Of a stretch of DNA of 64,000 nt, positions 14,214-58,677 are shown piece after piece. Within the stretch, counting starts at the first letter, position 1, and the number at the start of each line of letters is the position of its first letter. The notes below the pieces were generated by a model. The model was not told where the DNA came from. It made no database searches and saw nothing but the letters and a program-made list of their open reading frames with translations. This stretch comes from Syntrophomonadaceae bacterium (GTDB taxonomy: Bacteria; Bacteroidota; Ignavibacteria; Ignavibacteriales; SURF-24), in NCBI GenBank assembly GCA_050259615.1, contig JBLNAZ010000131.1, positions 2,646 to 66,645 of the forward strand, given 5' to 3'. Both the position numbers and the translations under genes were made by a program.

Positions 14214-15152
14214 CTAAAGCTTTTTGATAAAGTCTATTACTGCTCCATACCTTATGCCGCGTCCTGAGACGATAAGGCTGCCGGCAGGGAGCAGTTTCAG
14301 TATATTCTTCAGTATAAGAGTCCCCGCGAAAATGACGTCCTCGCGTCCTTTCATTATTTCAGGATAGAGCCTTAGTATCTCTGAAGAAGAGATCTTTGAA
14401 AAATCTTCCGAAAGATCTTTAAGGTCCCCAGTAGTGAGTACTGAATTTTCCACCTTATCCTCGTCATAATGCTGCAGATGCTGTTTTACGCAGGAAAGGG
14501 AAGTAGGAGTCCCGGCAACAGCCACAACTGAAAATCCGGGAGGGAATTTATCCTTCAGTTCAGAAAACTTGTCTTCAATTGCCTTATCCAGCTCTTCAAT
14601 TTCCTGTTTCAGAGGGGGATCGTGCAGAACATGGTTTTCTGTAAAGCTGACCACTCCTCCTAAGAAACTTTTGCTGAAAAGGATATTTCCTCTTTCGCCA
14701 TAAATAATTTCAGTGCTTCCGCCGCCGACGTCTATTACAACGTACTTTTCAGCCTCAACGCCCGAGGTGGCGCCGAGGAAAGAAAGTCTGGCTTCCTCCT
14801 GACCGCTAATGACGGAAATATCAATTCCGTATTTATCTTTCACCAGTGAGATAATATGGCTGCTGTTTGAGGCAAGGCGCATTGCACTTGTGGCCTTTGC
14901 AGCAACATGACTGCAGTTAAGGGCTTTTATAATTGAAGAATATTCGTCCATTACTTCAAGCATGGCATTTATTCTGTCGTCTGAAATTGGGCCTCCGGGC
15001 TTGAGTCCCTTGCCTATTCTGGGCATTCTGTATTCGTTTACGAGGGGTTTAATTTTACCATCCATTGTGTTTATATTTGCAATCAGCAATAAAATGGTGT
15101 TTGTACCTATATCAATAGAAGCAATATTCATATATTTTTCATATTTTTGCAA
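14214..15152 (-). CDS. ppx: Ppx/GppA family phosphatase (exopolyphosphatase, catalytic N-terminal domains only)
   Basis: ASIDIGTNTILLLIA, DVGGGSTE and an ASKHA-fold pattern. 312 aa. Confidence 0.85.
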   Translation of the reverse strand: MQKYEKYMNIASIDIGTNTILLLIANINTMDGKIKPLVNEYRMPRIGKGLKPGGPISDDRINAMLEVMDEYSSIIKALNCSHVAAKATSAMRLASNSSHIISLVKDKYGIDISVISGQEEARLSFLGATSGVEAEKYVVIDVGGGSTEIIYGERGNILFSKSFLGGVVSFTENHVLHDPPLKQEIEELDKAIEDKFSELKDKFPPGFSVVAVAGTPTSLSCVKQHLQHYDEDKVENSVLTTGDLKDLSEDFSKISSSEILRLYPEIMKGREDVIFAGTLILKNILKLLPAGSLIVSGRGIRYGAVIDFIKKL

Positions 15153-15168
15153 AAAGGAAATTCAATTT

Positions 15169-15690
15169 ATGCAAAACCTAAACAAATTTTCTAAAATATT
15201 TTTATATGTTTGTACTTTAAGCGGTGTTCTATGGCTTGGCGGCTATCTATCGCGAATTCTGCTTACCTACCAGCTTTTTGAGCCCAGGGATTTTATACTT
15301 AAAAGTTACGTAAACGACCAGAACTTAAGTGGAATCTTTTATACATTAAACAGTTCGGTTACATTTACACTCATTTTATTCCTGGTATTCTTAGTTTCAT
15401 TTATTCTATTTATTTCCACATCCGGAATCAAGCTCAAAGAAGAAGGATGGCTTTTTGTAATACTTCTGATTATAATAGTTACCGCGCCGTTTGAGCTCTA
15501 TCTAATGTCGTTTGATTACCAGATTGCCACAAAAGTATTTTACTCGGCTTTTGTACCCAGGGATGTACTGGCAATATACATTAAAAGGATGAAGTTACTC
15601 AGCAGTTTTCCATTGATCGAAATTTTTTCCTATTGTGCGATTGTTTTTCTTGTGATATTTAAACCGCTCAGAATGAAAAAAAATCAATGA
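15169..15690 (+). CDS. Hypothetical multi-pass membrane protein
   Basis: 4-5 hydrophobic helices. ATG 15169 is chosen because the 14962 ORF start would run antisense through ppx. Confidence 0.45.
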   Translation: MQNLNKFSKIFLYVCTLSGVLWLGGYLSRILLTYQLFEPRDFILKSYVNDQNLSGIFYTLNSSVTFTLILFLVFLVSFILFISTSGIKLKEEGWLFVILLIIIVTAPFELYLMSFDYQIATKVFYSAFVPRDVLAIYIKRMKLLSSFPLIEIFSYCAIVFLVIFKPLRMKKNQ

Positions 15691-36486: not shown

Positions 36487-38172
36487 TTAAATACCAATAT
36501 TTATAAGAAAGTAAGCCGCCAAAAACTTCTGGCTGGGGATGTTTTGCAGGGAATTATTCTGAAAAAGTATCCTTCCAGAAATATAATAATTTTTTACTGG
36601 TTCAAAAACACTGGAAAAAGAAATCATTCTGTAGAATTCCCTTTCCCCATCCAGAAACTTTACTTGTGTAGGATCTTCATTTCTGTGTCCGTAGTTGACA
36701 TCTCCGCCATAGTTTCTTAAAAGCGTGCCGTCAGCTCCCACAAGATTGGCTCCGTGCCTTGAAAAGCTGAACCCGCCTGTAAATGTCAGTCTGTTGACCG
36801 GGCGGTAATTAACTGAAATGAGGAACATGTCGCTGTTTGGCTGAACGGGACTCACCAGGCTGTAGGACATATTGGTAAAATTGTTATCAGTAATTCTGTG
36901 GGTATAGACAAAAGGTTCTATTCTTAAATACTCGAAGCCAAAGTCCACTGGAAGTATTCCATAGAGGTTAAAAGACCTTAGATACAAATCGTAAGAAAGC
37001 TGGTTGCCGTACCAGCCCGAACCGATTTTCCCAAAATCTATGTCGTCAATAAGAACTGAAGCCGTAATTTTCAGCCCCTTAAAAGAGTAATTTGCCATAT
37101 CCACAAAAAGCATTGAGTTATCCCGGTCCTGATTGGAGTGCTCGGTACTCTTGTAAAAGTTAAACGGGTTCAGGTACGACAGGTCTATTGAGCGTCTTGA
37201 ATAGATGATCAGTTCTCCAATTCCGACCGAGAAGTCTTTTGAGAGGTTAAGGCCCAGGCGATGGTAACCCATGTACTTTTCATCCACCTGGGTTATATCT
37301 CCCTGAAAAGGGTCAAACATATGGTTTATGTTTCCCAGGAGTTTTGCGTGAAGGTAGGAAAATGAAATAAACTTATAGTTAAATGCCATCGACAGGTAAT
37401 CGTACTGCGGGGCATTATCCCCCAGTATATTTCGGACAGGTCCATAGCCTATAACATTCTGGTCCCTTCCAATCTTAAATTTAACCAGGTCGAAATCGGC
37501 TGAAAAATAGCCTTCGGAGTTATCAAAGTAATCAGTAGCCGAAACAAAATTAGGATCGGCATTAAGCTTGTAATTGAATTTAAGCTCATTTACGCTTCTG
37601 GCTGCTTTTTTACTGCCCCAGAGTTTCGCGTTTGTTCCTTTTATATAAAAGCCGAATTTATCCAGAAAGGTTCCTCTAATTGCCCCGCCCCAGCGAACGA
37701 ATGCTGCCCCGATATTTTCAACAGGCTTGTAGCTGTTTTCGGAAATAGTTTCATAGTCGGCAGTCAGATCAATAAAGACAGCAGCCTTCGAAGAATCTGC
37801 AAAGCTGTAAATATGTTTTGGGCCCTGCCAAAGAAAGCTGAAGCTGCTGTCGGAAATAACATTTCTGGTTTCTTTTAGTGTGCCCGAAATTTCATATTCA
37901 AATTCATATTGAAAGTCTTTAAGCAGGTTTTTGTCTGTGTTATCGAGCCTGTCCTTATAAGGCAAAACTTCCTTCAGAAACCTGGCGGCAGTTCTTCTGG
38001 TTACAGGTCTTTCAAAATCATTAAATCCAGAAATGTACTTCAGGGAGTTCATTCTCTCCAGGAAATCATAAACAGGATGATTATAAGGCACATATTCAGC
38101 CTGTGCAAAAGCTTTTGCTGAAAAGGCGATAAAAAGAAATATGAAAATGGCGGTTATCTTATTTGTTCCCAT
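36487..38172 (-). CDS. Outer-membrane beta-barrel protein, Wzi-like (capsule assembly family)
   Basis: Signal peptide, N-terminal helical HPVYDFLERMNSLKYI motif, then alternating beta-strand pattern ending ...FLINIGI. Confidence 0.45.
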   Translation of the reverse strand: MGTNKITAIFIFLFIAFSAKAFAQAEYVPYNHPVYDFLERMNSLKYISGFNDFERPVTRRTAARFLKEVLPYKDRLDNTDKNLLKDFQYEFEYEISGTLKETRNVISDSSFSFLWQGPKHIYSFADSSKAAVFIDLTADYETISENSYKPVENIGAAFVRWGGAIRGTFLDKFGFYIKGTNAKLWGSKKAARSVNELKFNYKLNADPNFVSATDYFDNSEGYFSADFDLVKFKIGRDQNVIGYGPVRNILGDNAPQYDYLSMAFNYKFISFSYLHAKLLGNINHMFDPFQGDITQVDEKYMGYHRLGLNLSKDFSVGIGELIIYSRRSIDLSYLNPFNFYKSTEHSNQDRDNSMLFVDMANYSFKGLKITASVLIDDIDFGKIGSGWYGNQLSYDLYLRSFNLYGILPVDFGFEYLRIEPFVYTHRITDNNFTNMSYSLVSPVQPNSDMFLISVNYRPVNRLTFTGGFSFSRHGANLVGADGTLLRNYGGDVNYGHRNEDPTQVKFLDGEREFYRMISFSSVFEPVKNYYISGRILFQNNSLQNIPSQKFLAAYFLINIGI

Positions 38173-46206: not shown

Positions 46207-46706
46207 TCAGGACTGGAACAGATAAGGTTTCCAGGATTCTTCCATTTTACTGACCGAAACAGTCATAAACATGATGTGGTTAGGTTTATAAGGTTTCAAA
46301 TGCAGAACAAGATGAGCTTCCTCGGGTGTTCTGTTGCCTTTACGGTTATTACAGACTATGCACGCAGTAATCAGGTTTTCCCAGTTGTCTTCCCCGCCCC
46401 TGGCTCTCGGGATTATATGGTCCACCGTTAGCGGGAGGTCGCTTCTGCCGCAGTAGGCACATTTATACATGTCCCTTTTCAGTATGTTTTTTCTGGAAAG
46501 GATAACTTTCTTATAAGGCATCTGGACATACCTGTTCAGACGTATAACGCTGGGCCAAGGGAAAGAGTTATAGGCGCTATTTATCATTTTATGGTCTTTA
46601 TTAGCAACCATTTGTGCCTTATTAAGCAGCATTAGTATAATCGCCTTTCTGACGTTACATATGGAAAGCGGCTCATAGCTTTGATTTAGAACCAGGACTT
46701 TTGCAT
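46207..46706 (-). CDS. HNH endonuclease, reading frame split by one nucleotide near the 5' end
   Basis: HNH core CAYCGR...DHIIPRARGG...WENLITACIVCNNRKGNRTPEEA. The ORF track starts it at ATG 46632. The same frame stays open upstream and encodes KVLVLNQSYEPLSICNVRKAIIL, which has no start codon of its own. ATG 46706 lies in the +1 frame, across an A4 run at 46702-46699. Confidence 0.7.
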
Positions 46707-46946: not shown

Positions 46947-48047
46947 TTAAAATCCTTTTTTAATTATTCCGCCGGCAAGCACATAGCCCTGCTCGTCGTA
47001 AACAACAGCAGACTGCCCCGGCGTAATGGCACTTTTTGCCTCGTTAAATTTAAGTTCAAAATTGTTTTCATGAGCAGAAATTACTTCTGCCGGGGAGCCC
47101 TTGTCGGAATACCTGATTTTGCAGATAACTGTACTTCCGGGCTTTAGTATATCTGAGGAAACATAATTTACCTCTTCGGCAGAAAGGTTTTCCTGCATGA
47201 GGCCTGATTTGTCCCCGATCTCGATCGTATTATTATTATAATCTATTTTAGTTACATAAACCGGTCTGCCGAGAGCAATGCCGAGTCCTTTTCTCTGGCC
47301 GACAGTATAAAAAGGAATTCCCCTGTGTTCGCCTATTTTCCTGCCGTCAAGTAAAATATCCCCTTTTCCAATATTGTTCACAACTTCAGGGGCTTTCTCT
47401 CTTAAAAATCTCTCGTAATTATTATCGGCCACGAAGCAGATTTCCTGGCTGTCGGGTTTGGATGCCGTTTTGAGCCGGAATTTTTCAGCTAACTGACGCA
47501 CTTCGCTTTTATTATACATTCCAAGCGGAAAAATTGTTCTCTTAAGGCTTTCCTGCGTAAGGCCCCAGAGAGCATAAGTCTGGTCTTTCCCGTTATCTTT
47601 TGAATTTTTCAGGCAGTAACGGTTTGTCTGAGCATTAAATTCAACATTGGCATAATGGCCTGTTGCAACAAACTCTGCATCGAGTGCATCGGCTTTTTTA
47701 AGAAGCTCTTCCCATTTTATTTTTCTGTTGCAGACAACGCACGGGTTAGGCGTTCTGCCGTGGAGATACTCATCCACAAAATTATCTATAACTGCATCTT
47801 CGAATGCTTTTGTAAAATCTACAGTATAATGAGGAAACCCCATCATAGAAGCCACGTTTTTAGCATCATATACCGCATCAAGCGAACAGCAGCCCGATTC
47901 ATGCTTGGGAGCCCCGCCAACTTCCATGAAGCCCCATGTTTTCATCGTTATTCCAATTACCTCATAACCATCATTATGCAATAAAGCTGCTGCCACGGAA
48001 GAATCCACACCGCCCGACATTGCTACAATTACTCTGCCTTTGGACAC
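46947..48047 (-). CDS. mnmA: tRNA 2-thiouridine(34) synthase
   Basis: PP-loop VAMSGGVDSSVAA, and catalytic Cys regions NPCVVCN and EICFV. Confidence 0.93.
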   Translation of the reverse strand: MSKGRVIVAMSGGVDSSVAAALLHNDGYEVIGITMKTWGFMEVGGAPKHESGCCSLDAVYDAKNVASMMGFPHYTVDFTKAFEDAVIDNFVDEYLHGRTPNPCVVCNRKIKWEELLKKADALDAEFVATGHYANVEFNAQTNRYCLKNSKDNGKDQTYALWGLTQESLKRTIFPLGMYNKSEVRQLAEKFRLKTASKPDSQEICFVADNNYERFLREKAPEVVNNIGKGDILLDGRKIGEHRGIPFYTVGQRKGLGIALGRPVYVTKIDYNNNTIEIGDKSGLMQENLSAEEVNYVSSDILKPGSTVICKIRYSDKGSPAEVISAHENNFELKFNEAKSAITPGQSAVVYDEQGYVLAGGIIKKGF

Positions 48048-48322
48048 ATCGATACCCTTTCAGTTCTGTTATATTTAAATATTCAACGTTTAATATAGAT
48101 AAATAGTTTTGGAAATTCTATGGAAAATGGGCGCCTGAAAATGCACTAATAAAATCAAAATAAAATCCGAAGATCTTTATGGATCATTTAGGTTCATAAA
48201 AGCCTGAATTTCAGATTTGCCGGGAAGAAGGGTCAAATGCCGGAATGTAAGTCAGGTCAGTATACAAAACAGAAATTTAATTATCAATGTTTTTTTTAGA
48301 AAATCTTTGACCTCTGCTTTGC

Positions 48323-48351
48323 TTGACTGTGCTGAAAATATTATCTAAAAT
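48323..48351 (+). promoter_or_regulatory. Sigma70-like promoter candidate for the 48.4-54.8 kb operon
   Basis: TTGACT (48323-48328), a 17-nt spacer, then TAAAAT (48346-51), about 48 nt upstream of ATG 48399. Confidence 0.4.
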
Positions 48352-48398
48352 GCCTATGAAAAAAATCAATGCCTTTACTGCACTAAGACAGGTAATCT

Positions 48399-51300
48399 AT
48401 GAAAAACAATTCTACTATGAAATTCTTTAAGATGAAACTTCTTATTGTTACAGGACTTATTCTTGTATCTATGAGCAGCTTTGTCTTTGCCGCCAACGGC
48501 AAGATCACCGGGCGTGTTACAGACAGGGAAACCGGTGAACCACTGCCATCGGCAACCGTAGTCATCACGCACGTTGCAGCTGCCGATGGAAAGGAAGTTC
48601 CACTTCCGAAAACAATCGGTGCTGCTACAGATGCAGACGGATATTACTTTATATTAAATGTTCAGCCCGGGGTTTACACTCTTAGCGCGAGCATAATTGG
48701 TTACACACCTACGGTCCAGAAATCTGTCAGAGTGGACCTGGACCGCACAATTACGGCAAATTTCCAGCTTGGTTCCACATCCATTCAAACCGAACAGGTT
48801 ACGGTTGTAGCCCCGAGGGAAATCATTAAGCAGGACGTTTCAGGCACGCAGGAAGTTGTTGCATCGGCAAGAATTGAGCAGATGCCTGTCTTAAGGCTTG
48901 ACGAGTTCATGGGAAGAATAAAGGGTGTAGAACTTATAAGCAACTCTGAAGGAAACGGCTTAAGCGTCAGAGGCGGCAATATCAGGGAAACTGATATACG
49001 TCTTGACGGAATGTCGCTTCAGGACCCGCGTTCCGGAAACTCCTACCTTGCACTTAACTCGACAACAATTCAGCAGGTACAGGTTTTAACGGGCGGATTT
49101 GAAGCTAAATACGGCGGTATACAGTCGGGTCTGTTGAACGTTGTAACAAAGGACGGGCAGCGTGACCGCTACACTGTATCCTTAAAGATGGACGTGGCGC
49201 CGGCCGGACAAAGAAGATATTTCGGCACCGATCCATACAGCGACTCCTCGTGGGTATATAAGGTCTATGCCGGGCAGTATGCTATGAATGGAATCAGAAC
49301 CAAGGAAGATTCAGCTGCCGTGCCGAGCGACTTCTGGGGTTTCCCGGGCTGGGTAAAAGCCAGAACCATACAGGCATTAAAAAAAGATATCGGAATGTTT
49401 ACGGCAGACCAGCTCAGGGATCTGTGGTTGGCCCAGCATCCGCATTATACTTATCAGGATAAACCTGATTATTATCTGGAAGGCAGCATTACAGGTCCGG
49501 TACCTGGTGAATGGATTCCGGGTTATGGTGAATTTGCAAAGAGAAGCACCTTCCTTATGGGTTTTAAATATGAGAATTCACAGTTTGCATTTCCTGTTGG
49601 CGGAAGGGACCATTATCTGGACTGGAACGGCCAGATCAAAATTACCACAGCACTGAAAGATAACATGCGTCTGGCAGTCAACGGTATGTATGCAAAAGTA
49701 TCCACATTAAGCGGCGGCAGCCGTACAAGTTTCGGCGGCGCTTTAAGTGACCAGGCATCGAGTTTCGGCTTCCTTAACAACACAGAAAGTTCAGTCAAAA
49801 GTCAGGCAGCGCTTCTTGGAGGTGCAAGCTACGATCAGATGTTCAACCGCAGCAGGCTCCAGTTCTTTGATCAGAAGTATATGGTAGGCGGAGCACGCCT
49901 AACACATACTCTTTCCGACAAGGCATTCTATACACTTGATTTTCAGATGGGTTATACTGATCAGAACCTCCAGCCTTTCAGGGCTGACACGAGCAACCCG
50001 AACTTCTGGTACACAATGTACAGTGCTGCTACGAAGAAATACTACCGGTTCCCGCTTCCTATTTACGGAAGCCCGAATGCATCAACAAACTACGGCGCCG
50101 ATCCGCTGGGTAATTATAAATTATATGGCGGTACACAGAGAGTGGATTCATCATACACAACCACTTTCCAGTTAAAGGGTGATTTTACAGCACAGCTGGG
50201 GCGTCATAACCAGCTGGATGCAGGTTTTTCTGCAAAAATGGAAGATTTCTTTGTTTATACCGGCACCTGGTTCCAGAGCCAGCTTTCCTACACGCCAGAT
50301 ACCTGGCAGTACCTGAAATCACATCCGCTGCAGATAGGCCTTTATGCACAGGACAAGCTTGAGTTTGAAGGCATGATTCTGAATGCTGGTTTTAGAGTTG
50401 ACTATTTTAACCCGTTCAAAAAAGGCTTCCAGGTCGGTTTCCCTGAAAGCGAGGAATATGCCCGCCTGATGAATGACATTTACCCGAATCTGCCAGGCGA
50501 TGCAATGAGCTACGAGCGCTGGCTTGCCTTCAGGGATTTAATTGCAAATCCTCCGGGATGGCCGCGCACAGAAAATGCATCACAAATTTATCTGTCGCCA
50601 AGACTCGGTGTTTCATTCCCTATTACAGAAGACAGCAAGATGTACTTCAATTACGGTACTTTTTACCAGAGACAGCCAATGGCTTTCCTGTATGATACCT
50701 ATACGGTTCTTGGCGGTGTGACTGTTCCTACGCCGGGACTTGCAATGGAAAAGACAGTTTCATATGAGTTCGGCTATGAGCAGATGTTTTTATCTGACCT
50801 GATTGCAAATGTTACGGCATATTACAAAGATATCAGCAACCGTGCCCTTGCACGCACGTACGTAAACTGGTATGAGGATAACAACGTTACGGAATATGTT
50901 CCTGACGGGTACAAGGATGTCAGAGGTGTTGAATTACGCTTCGAGAAACCAGTAGGAAAGTTTGTAACATTTAACGCAATGTATGATTATATGGTAGCCA
51001 GTTCAGGACAGTCGGGTCTTTCCACAATATATGAAAACATGGTTAAGTACAGAGACAATGCATTGCGTAGTGCAGCAGTCTACCGTTCGGATCCCCTTCC
51101 AAGGGCAAACGCCAACCTTAACCTGCATACACCTTCTGATCTTGGAGATGGGTTCTACGGGTTAAATTACTTAATTGGCGACCTGTATGCCGATTTCTTC
51201 TTTGAATGGCGTTCAGGCGGAAGATTTCTCCTAAACCCGGGAGAAACCGATGTGAATCTCTGGAAGTATGCCGAAATTATTGATTACTGGAATATTGACT

Positions 51301-51575
51301 TCCGTGCATCCAAGGCAATCAATACCTCATTCGGAAGCCTGGAACTGGTCTTTACAGTAAAGAACCTGACAAATAACAAATGGCTTAGCACAGGCAACAT
51401 GACACAGAAGCAGTATAATGATTACAAGAATTCACTTCAGACTCCTGACAAAGGAGGCAACGACAAGTGGGGACAGTGGAAGTCAGATGATAATCATATC
51501 AAAACCGGCTGGCTTGATGCCCCGATATTCCTTAATCCAAGAAGAATTTTATTTGGTCTCCGTATCAATATATAA
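48399..51575 (+). CDS. TonB-dependent outer-membrane transporter with SusC/RagA-like architecture
   Basis: Signal peptide, then a carboxypeptidase-regulatory-like domain (GKITGRVTDRETGEPLPSATV...DGYY...GVYTLSASIIGY). A TonB-box-like EQVTVVAP follows, then a plug (GLSVRGGN...LDGMSLQDP...VLTGGFEAKYG) and an ~800-aa barrel. Confidence 0.85.
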   Translation: MKNNSTMKFFKMKLLIVTGLILVSMSSFVFAANGKITGRVTDRETGEPLPSATVVITHVAAADGKEVPLPKTIGAATDADGYYFILNVQPGVYTLSASIIGYTPTVQKSVRVDLDRTITANFQLGSTSIQTEQVTVVAPREIIKQDVSGTQEVVASARIEQMPVLRLDEFMGRIKGVELISNSEGNGLSVRGGNIRETDIRLDGMSLQDPRSGNSYLALNSTTIQQVQVLTGGFEAKYGGIQSGLLNVVTKDGQRDRYTVSLKMDVAPAGQRRYFGTDPYSDSSWVYKVYAGQYAMNGIRTKEDSAAVPSDFWGFPGWVKARTIQALKKDIGMFTADQLRDLWLAQHPHYTYQDKPDYYLEGSITGPVPGEWIPGYGEFAKRSTFLMGFKYENSQFAFPVGGRDHYLDWNGQIKITTALKDNMRLAVNGMYAKVSTLSGGSRTSFGGALSDQASSFGFLNNTESSVKSQAALLGGASYDQMFNRSRLQFFDQKYMVGGARLTHTLSDKAFYTLDFQMGYTDQNLQPFRADTSNPNFWYTMYSAATKKYYRFPLPIYGSPNASTNYGADPLGNYKLYGGTQRVDSSYTTTFQLKGDFTAQLGRHNQLDAGFSAKMEDFFVYTGTWFQSQLSYTPDTWQYLKSHPLQIGLYAQDKLEFEGMILNAGFRVDYFNPFKKGFQVGFPESEEYARLMNDIYPNLPGDAMSYERWLAFRDLIANPPGWPRTENASQIYLSPRLGVSFPITEDSKMYFNYGTFYQRQPMAFLYDTYTVLGGVTVPTPGLAMEKTVSYEFGYEQMFLSDLIANVTAYYKDISNRALARTYVNWYEDNNVTEYVPDGYKDVRGVELRFEKPVGKFVTFNAMYDYMVASSGQSGLSTIYENMVKYRDNALRSAAVYRSDPLPRANANLNLHTPSDLGDGFYGLNYLIGDLYADFFFEWRSGGRFLLNPGETDVNLWKYAEIIDYWNIDFRASKAINTSFGSLELVFTVKNLTNNKWLSTGNMTQKQYNDYKNSLQTPDKGGNDKWGQWKSDDNHIKTGWLDAPIFLNPRRILFGLRINI

Positions 51576-51584
51576 GGATTTAAC

Positions 51585-53693
51585 ATGAAAAGAAGCTATT
51601 TATCAAGTTTATTATTTGTAATACTGTTCATACCGGCTTTAACGGCATTTGGGCAGAGGAGGTACAATCCTCCCATTATGAACATGGATGTGGGTCATAT
51701 TAATCTTACCTTCAACAAGCTTACCGGTGACGGCGGTCTGCAGAGCATGTACAGCTGGAACCTTACGGGTGCTAGTCCGCAAAATACGGAAATATTTTAC
51801 TGGCCTGCGGACCAGTGGAAGTCCAATATGCTTTACCAGATTTTCAACCCGATTTCTCTGGATGAGAACGGTATAATAAATGAAAAGGGTGTAAAACAAG
51901 GAGCATTCGTCAGCGGCGGTGCACTGACAAATAACGGTACAACCGACTGGGCCCAGGAAACCAGGCGCTACCGTCCCCCGCACATTGTTATTGACGGGCT
52001 TACACAGGATCCTCCGTACCTCTGGAGTGTGGACCCGAATCTTAAGAGTGATATAAAAATTGAGTTTGAAGACGTTCTGGCTCAGTTCGGTATCAGAAGT
52101 CACGTTGAGGTTTACGGTTTCAGCAATCCTGATCATGCCGACTATTTTATCTGGAAGGCAACGCATAAATTTACAGGCGAACTTAAGATACCGCGCCAGA
52201 CGGCTTCCTCACTGGACAGTATTCCTGATCAGACGATACGCTTCTGGTGGCCTCTATCTTTCAGCTTCGGTCCTACCAAGGCTGGCGAATTCAGGGCCCT
52301 GGGAGGCTACGGCTTCGAAGGTCAGGATGACTACGACAGCTGGTTTAAGGTTCCATCACAGAATGGCGGAGCCCGCGACAGCCTATATATTGCTTACTAC
52401 AGGGACGGAAAAGCTAATGGAACAGTATCCTATTCCAACGGTTCTACTGATGATACGGGAGATCCGGACAGAACAACAGGACACCTGTATTCAACGCAGA
52501 TTCCGGGCTTCACACTCCTGCATGCCGATAAAAGTTATCAGGACAACACTGATGACAAAAGTCAGCCTTATTCAATGGCTCATGCAAGCATAGAGACTAA
52601 TCTCTGGGGTGACCACTCAAACGGAGTAAGGCTTGTCTACCGCGGTGATGCTTCCAACGGGCACTTCCCTGTTGAACCCCCTGTTACTGAAAAAGGTTAT
52701 GAAAAAGGGCCAATGAGGTTTATAACTGTAGGTCCGTATGAATTAACAAAAGACAAAAAAATCGGAAGAGCAGATTCAATTACATTCGTTTATGCTGTTG
52801 GTGCCGGAGACATCGGCTGGACGAAGGCCGACTCGATCGGAAGACTCTGGCTGAACAAGCAGATCACCGATCAGCAGAGACTTGATTATATGATGAAGGG
52901 GCGCGACAGTCTTGCAAAGGCACTTGACCATGCAAACTGGGCATGGGGCCGTTTAAGCCAGGGAAAATCTGTTCCTGCAACACCGCCGCCGCCGGATATG
53001 ACAGTAACATCCGGCAACGACAAAATTAATGTAAGCTGGTCTTATCCGGATCCTTCATACTTCAATGATGCGGTTACAAAGGTTGACGACTGGTATGCCT
53101 GGAGAGTATACAGGAAAAGGGGTGCTCTTTTAGTGGACGATCCTCTGGACCAGAAGAGCGGTGCGCGCTGGGAGCTTGTCTATGAAACAAAAGACCGCAG
53201 CCAGACCACTTTTGTTGATAAGGATGTTCAAAGAGGTATTGATTACTATTATGCAGTTACTGCAATGGACAACGGCACACAGAACCCGGATGATATTGTT
53301 CCGAATCAGAAACTTGAAAGTTCACGCTTGCAAACGCGTTCGATGGTTCCTGCCGTTCCTTATAAGCCCGGTTTGGATAATGGCGACTACGTCCGTGTGG
53401 TTCCAAACCCTGCTTCCAGGTACGGACAGGGCGCAGCTCTTGGCAGCGGTACACCAGACAAGATCAGCTTTTTCAACCTGCCATTTAAGTGCACGCTGAA
53501 GATCTTTACCGAGACCGGTGACCTGGTTAAAACTATTGAGCACCTGGGTACAGCCGATGATAGCTGGGATCAGCGGACCGATGAAAATCAGTATGTCAGC
53601 ACCGGCATATATATTCTTGCCGTAACTAATGTTCAGGCTGTGAGCGGCAAGGGTTCTGAGAATCAGTTTGTGAAATTTATTATCGTCCGCTAA
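51585..53693 (+). CDS. Secreted protein: novel ~450-aa N-domain, FN3-like module, T9SS-type C-terminal domain
   Basis: Signal peptide ...IPALTAFG/Q with no lipobox Cys. FN3-like PPPPDMTVTSGNDKINVSWSYP...YYYAVTAMDN. C-terminal ~90 aa VRVVPNPAS...CTLKIFTETGDLVKTIEH...GIYILAVTN...KFIIVR resembles T9SS / FlgD-Ig-like sorting domains. Confidence 0.6.
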   Translation: MKRSYLSSLLFVILFIPALTAFGQRRYNPPIMNMDVGHINLTFNKLTGDGGLQSMYSWNLTGASPQNTEIFYWPADQWKSNMLYQIFNPISLDENGIINEKGVKQGAFVSGGALTNNGTTDWAQETRRYRPPHIVIDGLTQDPPYLWSVDPNLKSDIKIEFEDVLAQFGIRSHVEVYGFSNPDHADYFIWKATHKFTGELKIPRQTASSLDSIPDQTIRFWWPLSFSFGPTKAGEFRALGGYGFEGQDDYDSWFKVPSQNGGARDSLYIAYYRDGKANGTVSYSNGSTDDTGDPDRTTGHLYSTQIPGFTLLHADKSYQDNTDDKSQPYSMAHASIETNLWGDHSNGVRLVYRGDASNGHFPVEPPVTEKGYEKGPMRFITVGPYELTKDKKIGRADSITFVYAVGAGDIGWTKADSIGRLWLNKQITDQQRLDYMMKGRDSLAKALDHANWAWGRLSQGKSVPATPPPPDMTVTSGNDKINVSWSYPDPSYFNDAVTKVDDWYAWRVYRKRGALLVDDPLDQKSGARWELVYETKDRSQTTFVDKDVQRGIDYYYAVTAMDNGTQNPDDIVPNQKLESSRLQTRSMVPAVPYKPGLDNGDYVRVVPNPASRYGQGAALGSGTPDKISFFNLPFKCTLKIFTETGDLVKTIEHLGTADDSWDQRTDENQYVSTGIYILAVTNVQAVSGKGSENQFVKFIIVR

Positions 53694-53707
53694 GCATAGG
53701 AGAACAA

Positions 53708-54736
53708 ATGAAATTAATATATAAAATAACTCTGAGTACGCTCGTTATCCTGCTGTGGGCAGGATATTCCAACGCCCAGATTGTAAAGAAAGCACAGGTT
53801 GGCTTCAGGTTCCTCGAGAATCCTGTTTCGGCTGAAGCTGTTGGGCGCGGAACCACGGGAATTATTAGCACTTTGAATTCAAACAGCATTTTCTGGAACC
53901 CGGCTTTGCTTGGGCTGATAGAAAGCAATGTGGATGTAAATCTGAACTATACAAAGGGCATTGCCGATATCAACTACAATGCAGCCGCTGCCTCGTTAAA
54001 GCTGGGAGATTTCGGGGTGCTTGGTTTCAGCCTTCTTTATATGGACTATGGTACTTTCTACGGAACCGTAAGAGCCCCTGAAGGCTACAGGGAGACCGGC
54101 ACTTTTTCACCTCAGGCTTATTCTGTAGGTATGGCATTTTCACAGAAGCTGACGGACAGGTTTTCCTATGGTGTTCACCTGAAATATTTCTACCAGAAGC
54201 TTGGTGATGCTGTTGTTGCTTTGAAAGGGACTTCGCTTTCCGACTCGAACCTTGTTCTGGGTAAAAAAAGCTACAGCAGTGATGGTTTTAACCTTCCGCT
54301 GGCTTTTGATGTTGGCGCTTACTACGATTTTCAATATAACGGAATCCGCTTTGGCGCCAGTCTGCAGAACATATCGAAGGAATACCATTATGAAGCTGAA
54401 GACTTTCCGCTTCCTTTTGCAATAAACTTCGGTGCCACGGTTGAACCGTTCGGGTTCTTCAACTTCAATAATCCCGATCATAAGATGGTTCTAAGCCTTG
54501 AATCGCGCCATCCGAGGGATTTCGGTGAAAAACTGAAAGTGGGGGCCGAATACACTTATATCAACAGCTTTATTGTAAGAGCAGGTTATATGACAAATTA
54601 CGACGGCCGTTCATTCACTTTCGGTGCCGGCGTAAGGCAGGAAATCTCAGGAGTTCCATTCCGCGTGGATTATGCATATGAACCGTGGGAAATTTTCGGA
54701 GGTGTCCACTTTATAACAATTGGTGTTTCGTACTAA
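53708..54736 (+). CDS. PorV/PorQ-family outer-membrane beta-barrel protein
   Basis: Signal peptide, then FRFLENPVSAEAVGRGTTGI...NSIFWNPALLG. This matches the PorV/LptO N-terminal pattern F-L-x2-P-x-ARx2-GMG-x-AG...W-NPA. Amphipathic strands end in ...GVSY. Confidence 0.7.
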   Translation: MKLIYKITLSTLVILLWAGYSNAQIVKKAQVGFRFLENPVSAEAVGRGTTGIISTLNSNSIFWNPALLGLIESNVDVNLNYTKGIADINYNAAAASLKLGDFGVLGFSLLYMDYGTFYGTVRAPEGYRETGTFSPQAYSVGMAFSQKLTDRFSYGVHLKYFYQKLGDAVVALKGTSLSDSNLVLGKKSYSSDGFNLPLAFDVGAYYDFQYNGIRFGASLQNISKEYHYEAEDFPLPFAINFGATVEPFGFFNFNNPDHKMVLSLESRHPRDFGEKLKVGAEYTYINSFIVRAGYMTNYDGRSFTFGAGVRQEISGVPFRVDYAYEPWEIFGGVHFITIGVSY

Positions 54737-54767
54737 GGTAAACTTTCAACAAACCAATCCTATAAGC

Positions 54768-54799
54768 CCCGGATGATTCAACTTATCCGGGGTTTTTTA
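54768..54799 (+). terminator. Rho-independent terminator closing the three-gene operon
   Basis: 8-bp stem ccccggat/atccgggg with a 10-nt loop, followed by T6. Confidence 0.75.
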
Positions 54800-54864
54800 T
54801 TTATTAGCAAATAGTTAAATTGCCCCGTAAATCCTACTAACTCTTTTAAGGAGAGAAACAAGGT

Positions 54865-55920
54865 ATGAAATGTCTTTATCTTTTATTTTTATCAGTAATA
54901 GTTCCAGGTTTTATTATGGCACAGGATGTAAGACCGGTTAGAGACGACGTAGGTTTCTGCTGGACATCGGAGGAGATGGATGAGCTCATAAACTATCTTT
55001 CAAGCCAGGAAGATAACAAACAGCAGCCCTTTTCTGAAGGCCTGATAGGCGGTATTTCTCCCCACGATGACTTCCTTTTTGCAGGAAACATTTACTACCC
55101 TCTTTTTAAGTCCCTCAGGGCGAAGGAAGTAATTATTTTCGGCGTTACACACGGAACGGTAAGAAAAGAAATCGGGGATCCGAAGAATGTTCTTTTATTG
55201 GATGACTACAAATTCTGGAAAGGTCCTTACAGCAATGTTGAAATATCAGATTTAAGAGAGGCAATTAAAAGTAATCTTAAGCCTGAATATTTCAGTGTCA
55301 ACGACAAAGCCCACAATCTCGAGCATTCAATTGAGGCATTAGTCCCCTTTCTGCAGCATTTTAATCCCGGTATAAAAATCACCCCTGTCATGGTGACACA
55401 GATGCCTTTTGAAACTATGGACAAAATAAGCAGTGAGCTTTCAGGGATCATAGCAGATTACATTAAGAAAAACAATCTCACACCGGGCAAAGACATTGCA
55501 TTTCTTATTTCATCCGACGCCACGCATTACGGAGAGGATTTCAAGTTTACTCCTTACGGAGAAGACGAGAAAGCGCATGAGACCGGCACTGAAAGGGATA
55601 TGTACGTTGCAGATGCAAATCTGAATAAAAGCCTGGATGTTCAGGCCGTAAACGCATTAAACAATGAACTAACGACGCAGCAGGATCCAAAATATGCAGC
55701 GCCCACATGGTGCGGAAGGTTTTCTGTTCCTTTCGGTCTGCTTACAACGGTTAAGACACTTGAAAAGCTGAATCTCCAGGTTTCGGGAAAGGTGTTGAGG
55801 TATTCTGACACGTGGACGGAAGGTGTTATGCCCATAAAGCGGACAAACCTAGGAATAACGGCACCTTTTTCGCTTAAGCACTGGTGCGGTCATCTTTCGG
55901 CGGGAATATATCTGAAATAG
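54865..55920 (+). CDS. MEMO1 / AmmeMemoRadiSam-B family protein with signal peptide
   Basis: ISPHDDFLFAG, EHSIEALVPFLQHF and ISSDATHYG parallel the Memo motifs PHAGY.YSG, EHS.E..LPFLQ and SD.SHY. The N-terminus MKCLYLLFLSVIVPGFIMAQD looks like a signal peptide. Confidence 0.6.
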   Translation: MKCLYLLFLSVIVPGFIMAQDVRPVRDDVGFCWTSEEMDELINYLSSQEDNKQQPFSEGLIGGISPHDDFLFAGNIYYPLFKSLRAKEVIIFGVTHGTVRKEIGDPKNVLLLDDYKFWKGPYSNVEISDLREAIKSNLKPEYFSVNDKAHNLEHSIEALVPFLQHFNPGIKITPVMVTQMPFETMDKISSELSGIIADYIKKNNLTPGKDIAFLISSDATHYGEDFKFTPYGEDEKAHETGTERDMYVADANLNKSLDVQAVNALNNELTTQQDPKYAAPTWCGRFSVPFGLLTTVKTLEKLNLQVSGKVLRYSDTWTEGVMPIKRTNLGITAPFSLKHWCGHLSAGIYLK

Positions 55921-55974
55921 TTCGAAGTTCAATATTAAAGTATTTCGCCTGCGGCCAGAAGCAATTAGTAGAAA

Positions 55975-56013
55975 TAAAAAAGGCACATGCAATTTATTGC
56001 ATATGCCTTTTTA
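55975..56013. terminator. Bidirectional terminator between convergent genes
   Basis: A7, then ggcacatgcaa-ttta-ttgcatatgcc (one mismatch), then T5. Confidence 0.7.
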
Positions 56014-56031
56014 TTTGATAATTGCAGAAAG

Positions 56032-58677
56032 TTATAAGCTTTGGTTTTTTACGTTCCAGCCCTCAACGGTCAGGACCGGTTTTGCTCCTGCGAGATCCTT
56101 TTCCTCAAAGTATCCTTTAATTACTCTTTTTTCTCCCGGCAGAAGTGAGATGTAGTTGTCTTCCCAGAATACAGGAAGAAGTGCTTCACCTCCCTGTCCT
56201 TTTTTAAGGTTCAGATCCACCTGGAAAGCAAGTTTGTCTGAAGGGTTATGCAGTTCAACTGAAACATAACGGCCTTTGGCCTCACTTCCGAACTTATGTT
56301 TTACTTTAAGCTGTACATTTGCAAGAGAGTTAAGTAAAGTAAAATCAGCATATCCTTTTAATGGTGTTATATACCAGTTAGTTTTTGCCGAATCCAAGTC
56401 GTCTGGCTGTGTGGACAGAGTATAGAAGTTGGAGCTAATAACTTTTCCCTTAGCATCAAGCAGCCTCAGATCCACAAAGTAGGCTTTGGAAAGACCGCTT
56501 ATTTCAGGAAGAATAAGTGTCTTCTGAGTTGAATCGGGGTAAAGATCCAGTAACAATTTTTTGCTGAACTTTTCGGACATATCCGGGTTAAATACCCTTA
56601 CTTCTGCATTCAGCTTTTTGAAGCTTCTTTCGGTCTGGTTTACAACTTCAACTCCCCCAGTGCCGTAATTATACTGTATATGAACGGGTTCGCAGGCTTT
56701 CTTAGCGCCGTAGAAGGCCGCGTTCGGCATTAAATAGTAGTCATATAACTGCCACCATAGTTTTGGCCATGCTGCATTGTACATCCACTGAATTACGCCT
56801 GTAGCGTTAGGCTTATTAGATGCAAAGGCTTCGAACATAGCCCTCATGCCTTCATAGTTCATGAACTGCGCCTTTGTGCAGTACTCTTCCAGTGTTGCAG
56901 GCGTTCCGAGGCGGTTATTTAATATATCGTTATATCTGTCGACTGTGCTGAATGCATTGCCGCCGCAGTGGAAATCCCATACTTCATTTTTACTAGCGGG
57001 CCACCGGCTTTCAGCGGGGAACATCTTTTTCATGCTTTCGAGGGCCGGGATCTGAGGACCCGGTCCCGTTTCAGTATTAAATCCGTAAGCGCCACCGAAT
57101 TTCTTATCCACATACCAGTACTGAGGCGGCACATAGTCGTAAGGGCCAAGCATTTTAACTGCAGTTTTACCCGTTACAGCGCTAGTCCATCCCTTTGCTG
57201 AAGCAAGGAAAGGCCTTGTGGGATCATCCTGTTTTAAGATTTCCTGGTAATTCTTTTCAAGCTCCGGGCGCGGAAGTTTGTCGCTTCCATAGACCCATAC
57301 AAAAATTGAAGGATGATTTCTGAGCCATTTAATCTGATCCTGCCAGGATTTTGAAATGAGCTGTATATCTTCAGGAGTCTTGATTCCTCCGAATTCATCG
57401 ACTTCTTTTCCAAGTGAAGCCGGCCATTCCCACTGGCAGCTCCAGCCTGTCATGATAAGTATGCCGTTTTCATCGCAGAGGTTGTAGAGGTCTTCATTGT
57501 TACCCCAAAAGCCTTCCAGCCTGATGGTATTAAGGTTCATGTGCCTGGCGTATTCAACCTGGGTTTTATAATTCTCATATGTATTATCCAGGAAAAGGTT
57601 ATCAACCCAGCCGCCGCCGCGGATAAGGATTTTGCGGCCGTTAAGTTTATAGCCCCTGTAGCCGTTTTCATTTATATAATCTGAAACTTCCCTTATTCCA
57701 AAGCGGGTTTCGCGTGTGTCTGAAACCTGCCCTTTGTGGTGGAATGACACTTTAAGGTCGTATAATTCCGGGGTACCGAAGTCATTTGTCCACCAGAGGC
57801 GCGGATTTTTTATATTAAGCTCTTTATATTCAGCCGGGGAAAATGTTACAAGTTTATTTTCGCCTGGTTCCAGGGAGACATTTTGTGTAAACCGGATAGT
57901 GCCAGCCTCTGCAACCAGGGTTCCGTTTACCTTTTCAGAAGTATTATTCTTTACTTCAGCTGAAACGGTAAGCTTAGCGCTCTTAAGAGTCTTAAGGTCA
58001 ACGGTGCTTTTTACAAATGGAAAATTAACCGAGACATCCCCTGTGAGTCTTACTTTTACCTCTCTGAATAAGCCCATATTCCTGTCGGGGGATTTTGGAT
58101 TCCAGTCAACAAATCCCATTGTGGGGTCACCCGGAACCGGCGGGAAGACCTCAACGGCCAGAATGTTCTTCTCTCCGGGCCTTGCAGTTCCAGTCACATT
58201 CAGTTCAAACTGGCGGAATGCGCCCAGAAGTGTATCGCTTTTTGCCACAAGCTTTCCGTTCAGCCAGACGTTTGCACGGTAGTTAATTCCGTCAAATTGC
58301 AGCTTTACATACTTGACCGAATTTTTAGAAGGGATTGAAAACTCTGTTCTGTACCACCAGGAATTCTTAAACTGGTCTTCAGGTATTGAAGCGAAGTTCT
58401 TGCCCACGAAAACATCCTTATAGACCTTGTCGTTTACAAGATTACCCATTACAGTTGAAGGCACCACGGCAGGCAGCCATCCCGCAGGCTTGAACTCAGC
58501 GCTGGAGATAAGGCCGCCCTGTTCTTTTACATTTTCAGATGACTGAATGTACCATCCCTTTTTAAGAACCAAAGTATTATCCTCTTTTCTTTTTGCCATT
58601 AAGGGTAAGGACAGCAGGCACACCAGGACAAAGGCGGTAAGAAGCCTGCTGCCTGATAACTTAATTCTTGTATTCAT
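56032..58677 (-). CDS. Glycoside hydrolase family 2 (beta-mannosidase / exo-beta-D-glucosaminidase-like)
   Basis: Signal peptide. GH2 sugar-binding domain (NSWWYRTEF, LQFDGINYRANVWLNGK) and TIM barrel (NTIRLEGFWG...). 881 aa. Confidence 0.82.
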   Translation of the reverse strand: MNTRIKLSGSRLLTAFVLVCLLSLPLMAKRKEDNTLVLKKGWYIQSSENVKEQGGLISSAEFKPAGWLPAVVPSTVMGNLVNDKVYKDVFVGKNFASIPEDQFKNSWWYRTEFSIPSKNSVKYVKLQFDGINYRANVWLNGKLVAKSDTLLGAFRQFELNVTGTARPGEKNILAVEVFPPVPGDPTMGFVDWNPKSPDRNMGLFREVKVRLTGDVSVNFPFVKSTVDLKTLKSAKLTVSAEVKNNTSEKVNGTLVAEAGTIRFTQNVSLEPGENKLVTFSPAEYKELNIKNPRLWWTNDFGTPELYDLKVSFHHKGQVSDTRETRFGIREVSDYINENGYRGYKLNGRKILIRGGGWVDNLFLDNTYENYKTQVEYARHMNLNTIRLEGFWGNNEDLYNLCDENGILIMTGWSCQWEWPASLGKEVDEFGGIKTPEDIQLISKSWQDQIKWLRNHPSIFVWVYGSDKLPRPELEKNYQEILKQDDPTRPFLASAKGWTSAVTGKTAVKMLGPYDYVPPQYWYVDKKFGGAYGFNTETGPGPQIPALESMKKMFPAESRWPASKNEVWDFHCGGNAFSTVDRYNDILNNRLGTPATLEEYCTKAQFMNYEGMRAMFEAFASNKPNATGVIQWMYNAAWPKLWWQLYDYYLMPNAAFYGAKKACEPVHIQYNYGTGGVEVVNQTERSFKKLNAEVRVFNPDMSEKFSKKLLLDLYPDSTQKTLILPEISGLSKAYFVDLRLLDAKGKVISSNFYTLSTQPDDLDSAKTNWYITPLKGYADFTLLNSLANVQLKVKHKFGSEAKGRYVSVELHNPSDKLAFQVDLNLKKGQGGEALLPVFWEDNYISLLPGEKRVIKGYFEEKDLAGAKPVLTVEGWNVKNQSL

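Follow-up and report, generated by a model that had tools for sequence, protein, structure and literature searches.

SusC/SusD pairs define polysaccharide utilization loci (PULs), and the tools that predict PULs rely on them. In the secretion system of type IX (T9SS), the C-terminal domain (CTD) of PorZ is retained on PorQ and that of PorU on PorV, and a review proposes that cognate PorV-like barrels shield CTDs from cleavage, including those of type B cargo with PorP/SprF (PMC10202324). In the β-barrel assembly machinery (BAM) of Bacteroides, the 14-strand FadL-like barrel of the BamG-BamH pair packs on a larger barrel and holds a surface protein with its extracellular loops (PMC12578637). 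Here, we analyzed a cassette of three genes, G1, G2, and G3, located on contig JBLNAZ010000131.1 of a genome deposited as Syntrophomonadaceae bacterium (GCA_050259615.1), within a stretch of 64,000 nucleotides that we refer to as the window. The genes are as follows:

48399-51575, plus strand: G1, a TonB-dependent transporter (TBDT); open reading frame (ORF) of 1058 amino acids (aa)
51585-53693, plus strand: G2, a secreted protein of an unannotated family; ORF of 702 aa
53708-54736, plus strand: G3, a PorV/PorQ-family outer-membrane β-barrel; ORF of 342 aa with a signal peptidase I (SPI) signal peptide

We consider it rather probable that the trio is an outer-membrane glycan-uptake module, which resembles the core of a PUL without SusD and in which G2 would be exported by the T9SS, held by G3, and serve G1. 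An earlier note, made from the sequence of the window, had proposed that the partner of the transporter is of the T9SS type and not lipidated. The CTD homology of G2, the fit of G3 to the PorV/PorQ family, and the co-conservation of the three genes support this proposal, and from them we infer export by the T9SS.

The transporter, its secreted partner, and the PorV/PorQ-family barrel

The domains of G1 are arranged along the gene as follows:

48504-48770, plus strand: CarboxypepD_reg N-terminal extension (Pfam), preceded by a signal peptide
48792-48815, plus strand: TonB-box-like EQVTVVAP
48828-49118, plus strand: plug (Pfam)
about 49125-51572, plus strand: barrel (Pfam)

Pfam models matched the N-terminal extension (CarboxypepD_reg, aa 36-124, 6.6e-18, 65 bits), the plug (Plug, aa 144-240, 4e-10, 40.6 bits against a cutoff of 23.9), and the barrel (TonB_dep_Rec_b-barrel, aa 479-990, 2.5e-17, 64.3 bits against a cutoff of 27), and the TonB-box-like motif lies at aa 132-139, after the N-terminal domain and ahead of the plug. 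G1 thus carries a TonB box, a plug, and a receptor barrel in the order that defines a TBDT. Its AlphaFold2 (AF2) model (pLDDT 74) matched solved TBDTs in Foldseek with E values down to 5e-24. PhuR, FusA, and PfeA were found equally with the SusC/RagA structures 8aa4, 5fq6, and 6slj (E 1e-24 to 1e-19), so that siderophore, heme, and ferredoxin receptors scored as well as SusC structures. In the NCBIfam scan, G1 did not match the SusC/RagA model TIGR04056 even at E<=1. Thus, of the SusC/RagA layout that had been ascribed to G1, the domain order and the TonB box hold, but the family membership does not. Because the TIGR04056 match is missing and the model is not closer to SusC than to other TBDTs, we rejected G1 as a SusC/RagA family member; judged by sequence and model, it is a TBDT of its own branch, SusC-like in architecture only.

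The G1 model contains a confident helical insertion at aa 285-346 (49251-49436, pLDDT about 85-91) between early barrel strands. To our knowledge, helical insertions of this kind are not associated with classical TBDTs. As modeled, the insertion could be a docking surface for G2 or G3.

The features of G2 are as follows:

51585-51653, plus strand: SPI signal peptide without a lipobox
51654-52970, plus strand: β-rich head of about 430 aa (about aa 30-460; AF2 model)
52980-53378, plus strand: FN3 domain (about aa 466-598; model and sequence profile)
53385-53690, plus strand: variant T9SS CTD (aa 601-702; β-sandwich with CTD homology)

The absence of a lipobox cysteine from this secreted protein, pointed out in the earlier note, was borne out, as the signal peptide contains no cysteine and the only one in the protein is C636. 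No Pfam or NCBIfam family matched G2 above its cutoff. The AF2 model (pLDDT 83, pTM 0.84) is mainly β, and Foldseek searches of the PDB with the full-length model returned only FN3 tandem matches and a weak match to the N-terminal sandwich of a glycoside hydrolase (GH) of family GH116. The FN3-like module noticed previously is also backed by sequence, as the profile of the G2 family found PDB 3mpc (E 3e-8). The predicted signal-peptidase sites of both G2 and G3 (aa 24 in each) would expose an N-terminal glutamine, which follows AFG in G2 and SNA in G3. This recalls the Bacteroidetes "Q-rule", which has been reported not to extend to the whole Fibrobacteres-Chlorobi-Bacteroidetes (FCB) group (PMC5837995).

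The C-terminal domain of G2 carries the motifs VVPNPA, NLPxxCTLKIFTETGDLVKTI, SGIYIL, and KFIIVR, among which the CTD-type signatures PNP, SG[IV]Y[IV], and a terminal K-x-x-x-x-R can be recognized. Aligned with hhalign to five Pfam-annotated Por_Secre_tail (PF18962) CTDs from related loci, it gave a probability of 96% and E 3.7e-9 over 66 columns. In NCBIfam, the CTD part of the PorZ model was matched by 42 of 48 G2 orthologs (best 1.4e-7) and the CTD of PorU by 8 of the 48; the nearest matches of the domain are thus the retained CTDs of PorZ and PorU. The G2 family profile also found the PorZ structure 5m11 (E 0.003), and PDB sequence searches with G2 profiles returned nothing beyond the FN3 and PorZ CTD matches. 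The canonical CTD models behaved differently, since TIGR04183 matched none of the 48 orthologs and PF18962 none of ten distant relatives. The T9SS-type CTD proposed for the 702-aa protein therefore stands as a matter of homology (hhalign and the PorZ CTD matches) but not of direct recognition by TIGR04183 or PF18962.

A hidden Markov model (HMM) built from G2-type CTDs matched G2 proteins only across all fetched loci, which marks these domains as a specialized CTD subclass. An HMM of canonical CTDs matched other proteins in the fetched loci, never G2, and nothing in the window. On this sequence evidence, the C terminus of G2 is a homolog of type A T9SS CTDs that forms a distinct subclass missed by the standard models.

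Three assignments of G2 to known proteins were rejected. It is not SusD/RagB, as it lacks a lipobox cysteine, has no SusD Pfam match at E<=1, and is mainly β in its model. It is not PorZ, as NF052228 gave 17.9 bits against a cutoff of 260 and only model positions 672-748 of 757 were matched. A known carbohydrate-active enzyme was rejected as well, with no Pfam match in the window protein or in ten distant relatives and no invariant pair of acidic residues across the G2 family.

G3 matched the PorV/PorQ family model NF033709 with 171.2 bits (cutoff 90, E 4e-50) and stayed below the equivalog cutoffs for both PorQ (NF033711, 88.9 bits against 220) and PorV (LptO; NF033710, 81.5 bits against 250). 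Its sole PDB sequence match was Flavobacterium johnsoniae PorV (6h3i_F, 1.6e-8). When compared with FadL and other porin families, the 342-aa protein gave only marginal FadL-type matches in Pfam (Toluene_X 1.5e-4, TraF_2 7.7e-6), far behind the PorV/PorQ model. The proteins at the G3 position of other loci behaved in the same way: all eight tested (seven distant and one orthologous, from L020) passed NF033709 with 159-215 bits, and none of the nine G3 proteins, including that of the window, reached the PorV or PorQ equivalog cutoff. Thus, the description of G3 as PorV/LptO-like holds at the level of the PorV/PorQ family, which it fits far better than FadL, but not at that of the PorV equivalog. 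G3 appears closer to a PorQ-type barrel that anchors an uncleaved CTD than to the PorV shuttle, and we propose it as the cognate anchor for the CTD of G2.

Conservation and divergence of the cassette

Full-length homologs of G1, G2, and G3 number in the hundreds each, which identifies all three as real genes. More than 270 close homologs of G2 were found, mainly in metagenome-assembled genomes (MAGs) of Ignavibacteria, and all the named ones are annotated "hypothetical". A genome scan yielded 13 loci from Ignavibacteriota and Candidatus Neomarinimicrobiota, in which G1 lies directly upstream and G3 directly downstream of G2 wherever the contig reaches far enough. Over all assessable loci, G1 and G2 were adjacent in 25 of 25 and G2 and G3 in 25 of 26; the contig of L022 ends before its G3 position can be judged. 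The labeled loci belong to Ignavibacteriota, Neomarinimicrobiota, and KSB1, and the distant metagenome contigs carry no taxon label. Outer flanking genes of the cassette are common only to the window and its closest relative, L001.

To define the extent of the G2 family, we used a profile search covering 1.8 billion representative proteins clustered at 50% identity. At E<=1e-3, it gave 3579 clusters, and 237 were left when the threshold was E<=1e-30; the taxon labels among them include Ignavibacteriales, Melioribacter/Rosettibacter, Balneolaceae, Marinimicrobia, and KSB1. Most full-length members measure 650-760 aa. None of ten sampled members had a Pfam annotation, and the family has neither a Pfam nor an NCBIfam model. 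The contigs of ten distant members, which share 23-34% identity with the G2 of the window, were examined. Nine of them encode, in this order, a CarboxypepD_reg- and Plug-containing transporter (1016-1288 aa), the G2-like protein, and a protein of 325-362 aa; the contig of L014 ends inside the gene at the G3 position.

In the distant loci, identity to the window proteins was 23-32% for G1, 25-35% for G2, and 29-36% for G3, which is the best conserved of the three in most of them. This joint divergence points to duplication and divergence of the whole cassette as a unit. Together, the synteny over several phyla and the divergence in step show that the trio is co-conserved in relatives. Within G2, conservation rises toward the C terminus: in 38 distant relatives, mean identity to the window protein increased from 24% (head) through 35% (FN3) to 41% (CTD), and the CTD accounts for 8 of the 12 invariant columns of the alignment. 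Such a gradient fits a constant anchor combined with a variable binding head.

Several loci depart from the basic arrangement. In L026 (4983-11733), all three genes are present in the order transporter-G3-G2, and G2 carries an extra domain of ~200 aa before its CTD. In the orthologous loci L004 (6983-7957) and L006 (6371-7864), a canonical Por_Secre_tail gene is inserted between the transporter and G2. Four distant cassettes are followed by a gene for a TIG-domain protein (L015 10217-13200, L018 9897-12531, L023 12360-14964, and L024 12123-12530), and in three of the four, the gene after it encodes a canonical-CTD protein (with CBM9 in L015). This continuation hints at a five-gene form of the cassette in which surface binding proteins are added, a form that the window does not have. 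A protein with 100% identity to G1 (P0413) has been deposited from a MAG labeled Syntrophomonadaceae, and the related cassettes L002 and L006 carry Bacillota and Acidobacteriota labels. Because of their outer-membrane and T9SS-type content and their similarity to Ignavibacteriales, the contigs under these labels are probably mis-binned.

The layout of the window cassette was exactly as described before, with three co-directional genes separated by 9 nt (G1-G2) and 14 nt (G2-G3). It is bounded by a candidate promoter and a terminator:

48323-48351, plus strand: candidate sigma-70-type promoter TTGACT-N17-TAAAAT, matching the consensus at 10 of 12 positions
54764-54795, plus strand: intrinsic terminator hairpin after G3, with a 13-bp stem containing 6 GC pairs, followed by a T run

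The strong terminator seen previously downstream of the trio was thus found again. The promoter reported with it is present as well and has the joint-top score within 47900-56100 (three minus-strand sites also reach 10 of 12), but the region holds 15 promoter-like sites against 12.3 +/- 3.5 in shuffled sequences. As this count is not above that of the shuffles, the candidate by itself is weak evidence. In L001, the -10 element and the leader/5' untranslated region are almost identical, the -35 element reads TCGACT, and the middle of the intergenic region upstream of G1 has diverged from that of the window. Rfam detected no riboswitch upstream of G1; its sole match in the window is a tRNA.

Carbohydrate context and neighboring genes

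The genes around the distant cassettes include those for GH16, a GH5 cellulase, and GH26 with two GH2 enzymes. They also encode a family 9 carbohydrate-binding module (CBM9) protein with a canonical CTD, TIG-domain proteins, and sodium:solute (SSF) symporters, and one distant cassette is adjoined by a divergent TonB gene. In nine ortholog loci from Ignavibacteriota and Neomarinimicrobiota, the cassette is flanked by genes for ROK kinases and a major facilitator superfamily (MFS) sugar transporter, which a SIS-domain sugar isomerase usually accompanies; five of the loci also have a DUF5009/NagX-like membrane protein. GH9 is present in nine ortholog loci and nagA in four, and the single nagA copy scanned (L021) scored 317 bits on TIGR00221 (cutoff 226). 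A SusCD-like role would be expected to come with such a setting of carbohydrate-active enzymes and sugar catabolism.

The window and L001 have lost the ROK/MFS neighborhood and carry instead a convergent GH2 gene:

56032-58677, minus strand: GH2 glycosidase with an exo-β-D-glucosaminidase-type Ig domain (Pfam Ig_GlcNase 2e-33 and GH2 domains)

This gene is syntenic only in L001, and the other ortholog loci have GH9 and/or nagA at the corresponding position. It is a possible downstream enzyme of the same pathway, although its link to the cassette is weaker than that of the other parts. Both GH2 (CsxA type) and GH9 (Vibrio and Photobacterium chitin operons) include exo-β-D-glucosaminidases in CAZy. 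For this reason, the likely cargo of the ortholog group of the window is oligosaccharides of glucosamine or N-acetylglucosamine, derived from chitosan, chitin, or a similar polymer. We hold this with only moderate confidence, since similar GH2 genes also sit in an apparent mannan locus, L024.

Two further genes of the window lie 45 kb from the cassette. One encodes an Amidohydro_1 protein (2920-4098, plus strand) about 30% identical to the nagA product of L021 and the other an MFS transporter (125-1393, plus strand). In other genomes, the genes of the amino-sugar pathway are clustered, and these two may be scattered members of it.

Neither the cassette nor the gene calls of loci L014-L026 include a SusD-family gene. 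Because a PUL in the PULDB sense has an adjacent susC-susD pair, which is missing here, the locus is PUL-like in context only. The statement that the cassette has its third gene and partner "instead of SusD" is therefore true at the locus but not necessarily genome-wide, since a SusCDE operon is known from Melioribacter roseus (PMC3534657).

Elsewhere, the window contains mostly housekeeping genes (mnmA, trpS, scpAB, topA, lysS, ftsY, parAB, and others), and these neighbors, conserved only in L001, were rejected as a guide to function. After the terminator lies a gene for a Memo/AmmeMemoRadiSam-system-B-like protein (54865-55920, plus strand; Pfam Memo 2.6e-24), syntenic only with L001. Its N terminus is a signal-peptide-like hydrophobic segment, MKCLYLLFLSVIVPGFIMAQ, which is unexpected, as the family would be presumed cytoplasmic. 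A small HNH endonuclease ORF (46207-46632, minus strand) stands alone between trpS and mnmA with sizeable intergenic gaps and may be the remnant of a mobile or homing element. Two ORFs had no Pfam match at E<=1e-5, one of 561 aa (36487-38172, minus strand) and one of 242 aa (14962-15690, plus strand).

Proposed function, rival explanations, and known systems

In the mechanism that we propose, all three proteins would cross the inner membrane by Sec, and BAM would place G1 and G3, the latter as a PorQ-like barrel of the 14-strand type, into the outer membrane. G2 would be exported by the T9SS of the host. Its CTD would be neither cleaved nor attached to lipopolysaccharide (LPS) and would stay bound to the cognate G3, as the PorZ CTD does on PorQ. 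With FN3 as a spacer, the G2 head would be tethered beside or over G1, where this variable domain would probably capture an oligosaccharide and feed it to G1, acting as the TonB-energized import channel. That the host lineages possess a T9SS is indicated indirectly. Canonical Por_Secre_tail proteins are present in related cassette loci; in published work, CTD proteins are described as restricted to species with a T9SS and the system as probably present in Ignavibacteriota (PMC11285876, PMC5837995, PMC3534657).

A number of points weigh against this picture. In the direct scan, the CTD of the window G2 reached neither TIGR04183 nor PF18962, and no glycan-binding fold was recognizable in its head when the full-length model was compared with the PDB by Foldseek. 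The KSB1 locus L025 (129-5645) has a transporter and a G2 with the G2-type CTD and no adjacent PorV/PorQ gene. Among the 44 window ORFs scanned with Pfam, there was no T9SS core gene, as the earlier note had already remarked. The co-transcription of G1, G2, and G3 is presumed from gene spacing only. The amino-sugar genes of the window are not adjacent to the cassette, which is adjoined by GH2 only, and related GH2 enzymes occur in the putative mannan locus. Last, G2 could share its regulation with G1 and sit at the surface without ever making contact with the transporter.

This last point corresponds to the strongest of the rival explanations, in which G2 and G3 form a T9SS cargo-anchor pair that belongs to the same pathway and is co-regulated with G1 and yet makes no complex with it and provides no lid. 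G2 could then be a surface glycan-binding protein, an adhesin, or an unrecognized enzyme. The CTD and PorV/PorQ evidence applies equally to such a pair, and many distant cassettes continue with TIG and Por_Secre_tail genes, as would be the case for loosely associated binding proteins. On the other hand, G1 and G2 are neighbors in every assessable locus and all three proteins have diverged in step down to about 25% identity, which is tighter than usual for accessory binding proteins, with the gene order varying once, in L026. We regard this explanation as unlikely, although it deserves serious attention.

The remaining rivals rank low because of the CTD homology, the many paralogous cassettes, or the catabolic context. 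The Myxococcus protein Oar, which combines CarboxypepD_reg, plug, and barrel in about 1060 aa, is needed for secretion of PopC. G1 could by analogy be a TonB-dependent exporter or assembly factor that moves G2 to the cell surface independently of the T9SS, with G3 receiving G2 afterward. Its CarboxypepD_reg domain and size, together with the lack of a T9SS gene among the scanned window ORFs, would agree with this. However, G2 ends in a homolog of the T9SS sorting domains, the canonical CTD proteins of these loci imply that a T9SS is present, and import is favored by the catabolic genes and inner-membrane sugar transporters in the surroundings, which makes an Oar-like role very improbable.

Slightly less probable again is that G2 and G3 are a divergent general PorZ-PorQ attachment pair serving all cargo, with the transporter next to them by accident. 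The best NCBIfam matches of the G2 C terminus are indeed to PorZ, and of the two equivalog models, that of PorQ gives G3 a slightly better score than that of PorV. However, the PorZ match is limited to the CTD, G2 has no propeller-like region, and thousands of divergent clusters with their own transporter and differing enzyme context are unlike a single-copy housekeeping component. Least credible of all is the idea that G3 transports a hydrophobic or amphipathic substrate as a FadL-type channel, with G2 as an unrelated secreted protein, since the weak Toluene_X and TraF_2 matches of G3 are far exceeded by its 171 bits on the PorV/PorQ model, and the G3 barrel adjoins G2, to whose family the G2-type CTD is exclusive, in nearly every assessable locus.

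Returning to the uptake module, we tentatively extend it to a general proposal, which we consider conceivable and somewhat doubtful. Bacteria of the FCB group outside Bacteroidia (Ignavibacteriota, Balneolales, Marinimicrobia, and KSB1) would have a second, lipoprotein-independent design for TonB-dependent glycan capture, in which G3 docks on G1 and the uncleaved CTD holds G2 as a substrate-binding cap. G2 would then be a true functional replacement of SusD, uptake would depend on the T9SS, and thousands of substrate-specific cassettes would exist.

In line with the earlier remark that the trio is not a described system, we found no description of the cassette in the literature searched, the coverage of which is incomplete, so that a prior description is possible. 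Neither Ignavibacteria nor the T9SS comes up in a review of glycoside transporters from 2026. TBDTs, T9SS CTDs, and PorV/PorQ barrels are known kinds of proteins; their obligatory PUL-like combination and the G2 family itself appear to be undescribed.

Sediments, soils, bioreactors, and the deep ocean harbor abundant Ignavibacteria, Marinimicrobia, and relatives of these groups. Because PUL prediction relies on SusC/SusD pairs, glycan uptake in FCB lineages that lack such pairs at most loci is largely invisible to annotation: at present, the G2 protein of about 700 aa is unannotated and the barrel is labeled only "PorV/PorQ family protein". The cassette would provide a searchable marker for carbohydrate-uptake loci in these groups. 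If the proposal is true, the T9SS would be a prerequisite for nutrient import, linking two fields that have been studied separately, and anchoring by a CTD that stays on its cognate PorV-like barrel, known so far from PorZ-PorQ and suggested for type B cargo, would turn out to be a principle that is reused widely.

Among the known systems, Myxococcus Oar shares with G1 its domain composition and length. Its implied role, however, is in the export of proteins, and it is not known to have partners like G2 or G3. Type B CTD cargo with PorP/SprF, such as SprB-SprF of Flavobacterium, resembles the cassette in that the cargo gene adjoins the gene for its own PorV-like barrel (PMC10202324). The barrel family is nevertheless another one (a single distant G3-position protein gave a weak PorP match of 25 bits against a cutoff of 90.55), the CTD class differs, there is no transporter partner, and the known function is that of gliding adhesins. 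BamG-BamH offers, by analogy, a structural precedent for a G3 that would dock on G1 and present G2. BamH, in contrast, is a lipoprotein of another machine, and that complex has no CTD; the likeness drawn here is one of arrangement.

The PorQ-PorZ and PorV-PorU pairs are closer, as they combine a PorV/PorQ-family barrel with a T9SS protein whose unremoved CTD serves as a tether (PMC10202324), which is what we infer for the cassette. In contrast to these pairs, the likeness of G2 to PorZ is confined to the CTD, G3 stays below the equivalog cutoffs, and G2-G3 occurs in many divergent copies linked to a transporter and carbohydrate genes, with no role in LPS attachment.

The comparison with SusC/SusD (RagA/RagB) and the utilisomes rests on three shared traits: a large TBDT with a carboxypeptidase-regulatory-like extension before the TonB box, a co-directional gene immediately downstream that encodes the surface-protein partner, and a locus set among glycoside hydrolases, sugar kinases, and inner-membrane sugar transporters. 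The components themselves differ, as G1 lies outside the SusC/RagA family, G2 is β-rich with FN3 and a CTD, whereas SusD is a helical lipoprotein, and the PorV/PorQ barrel is an obligatory third member. Surface exposure in the cassette would need the T9SS rather than lipoprotein export.

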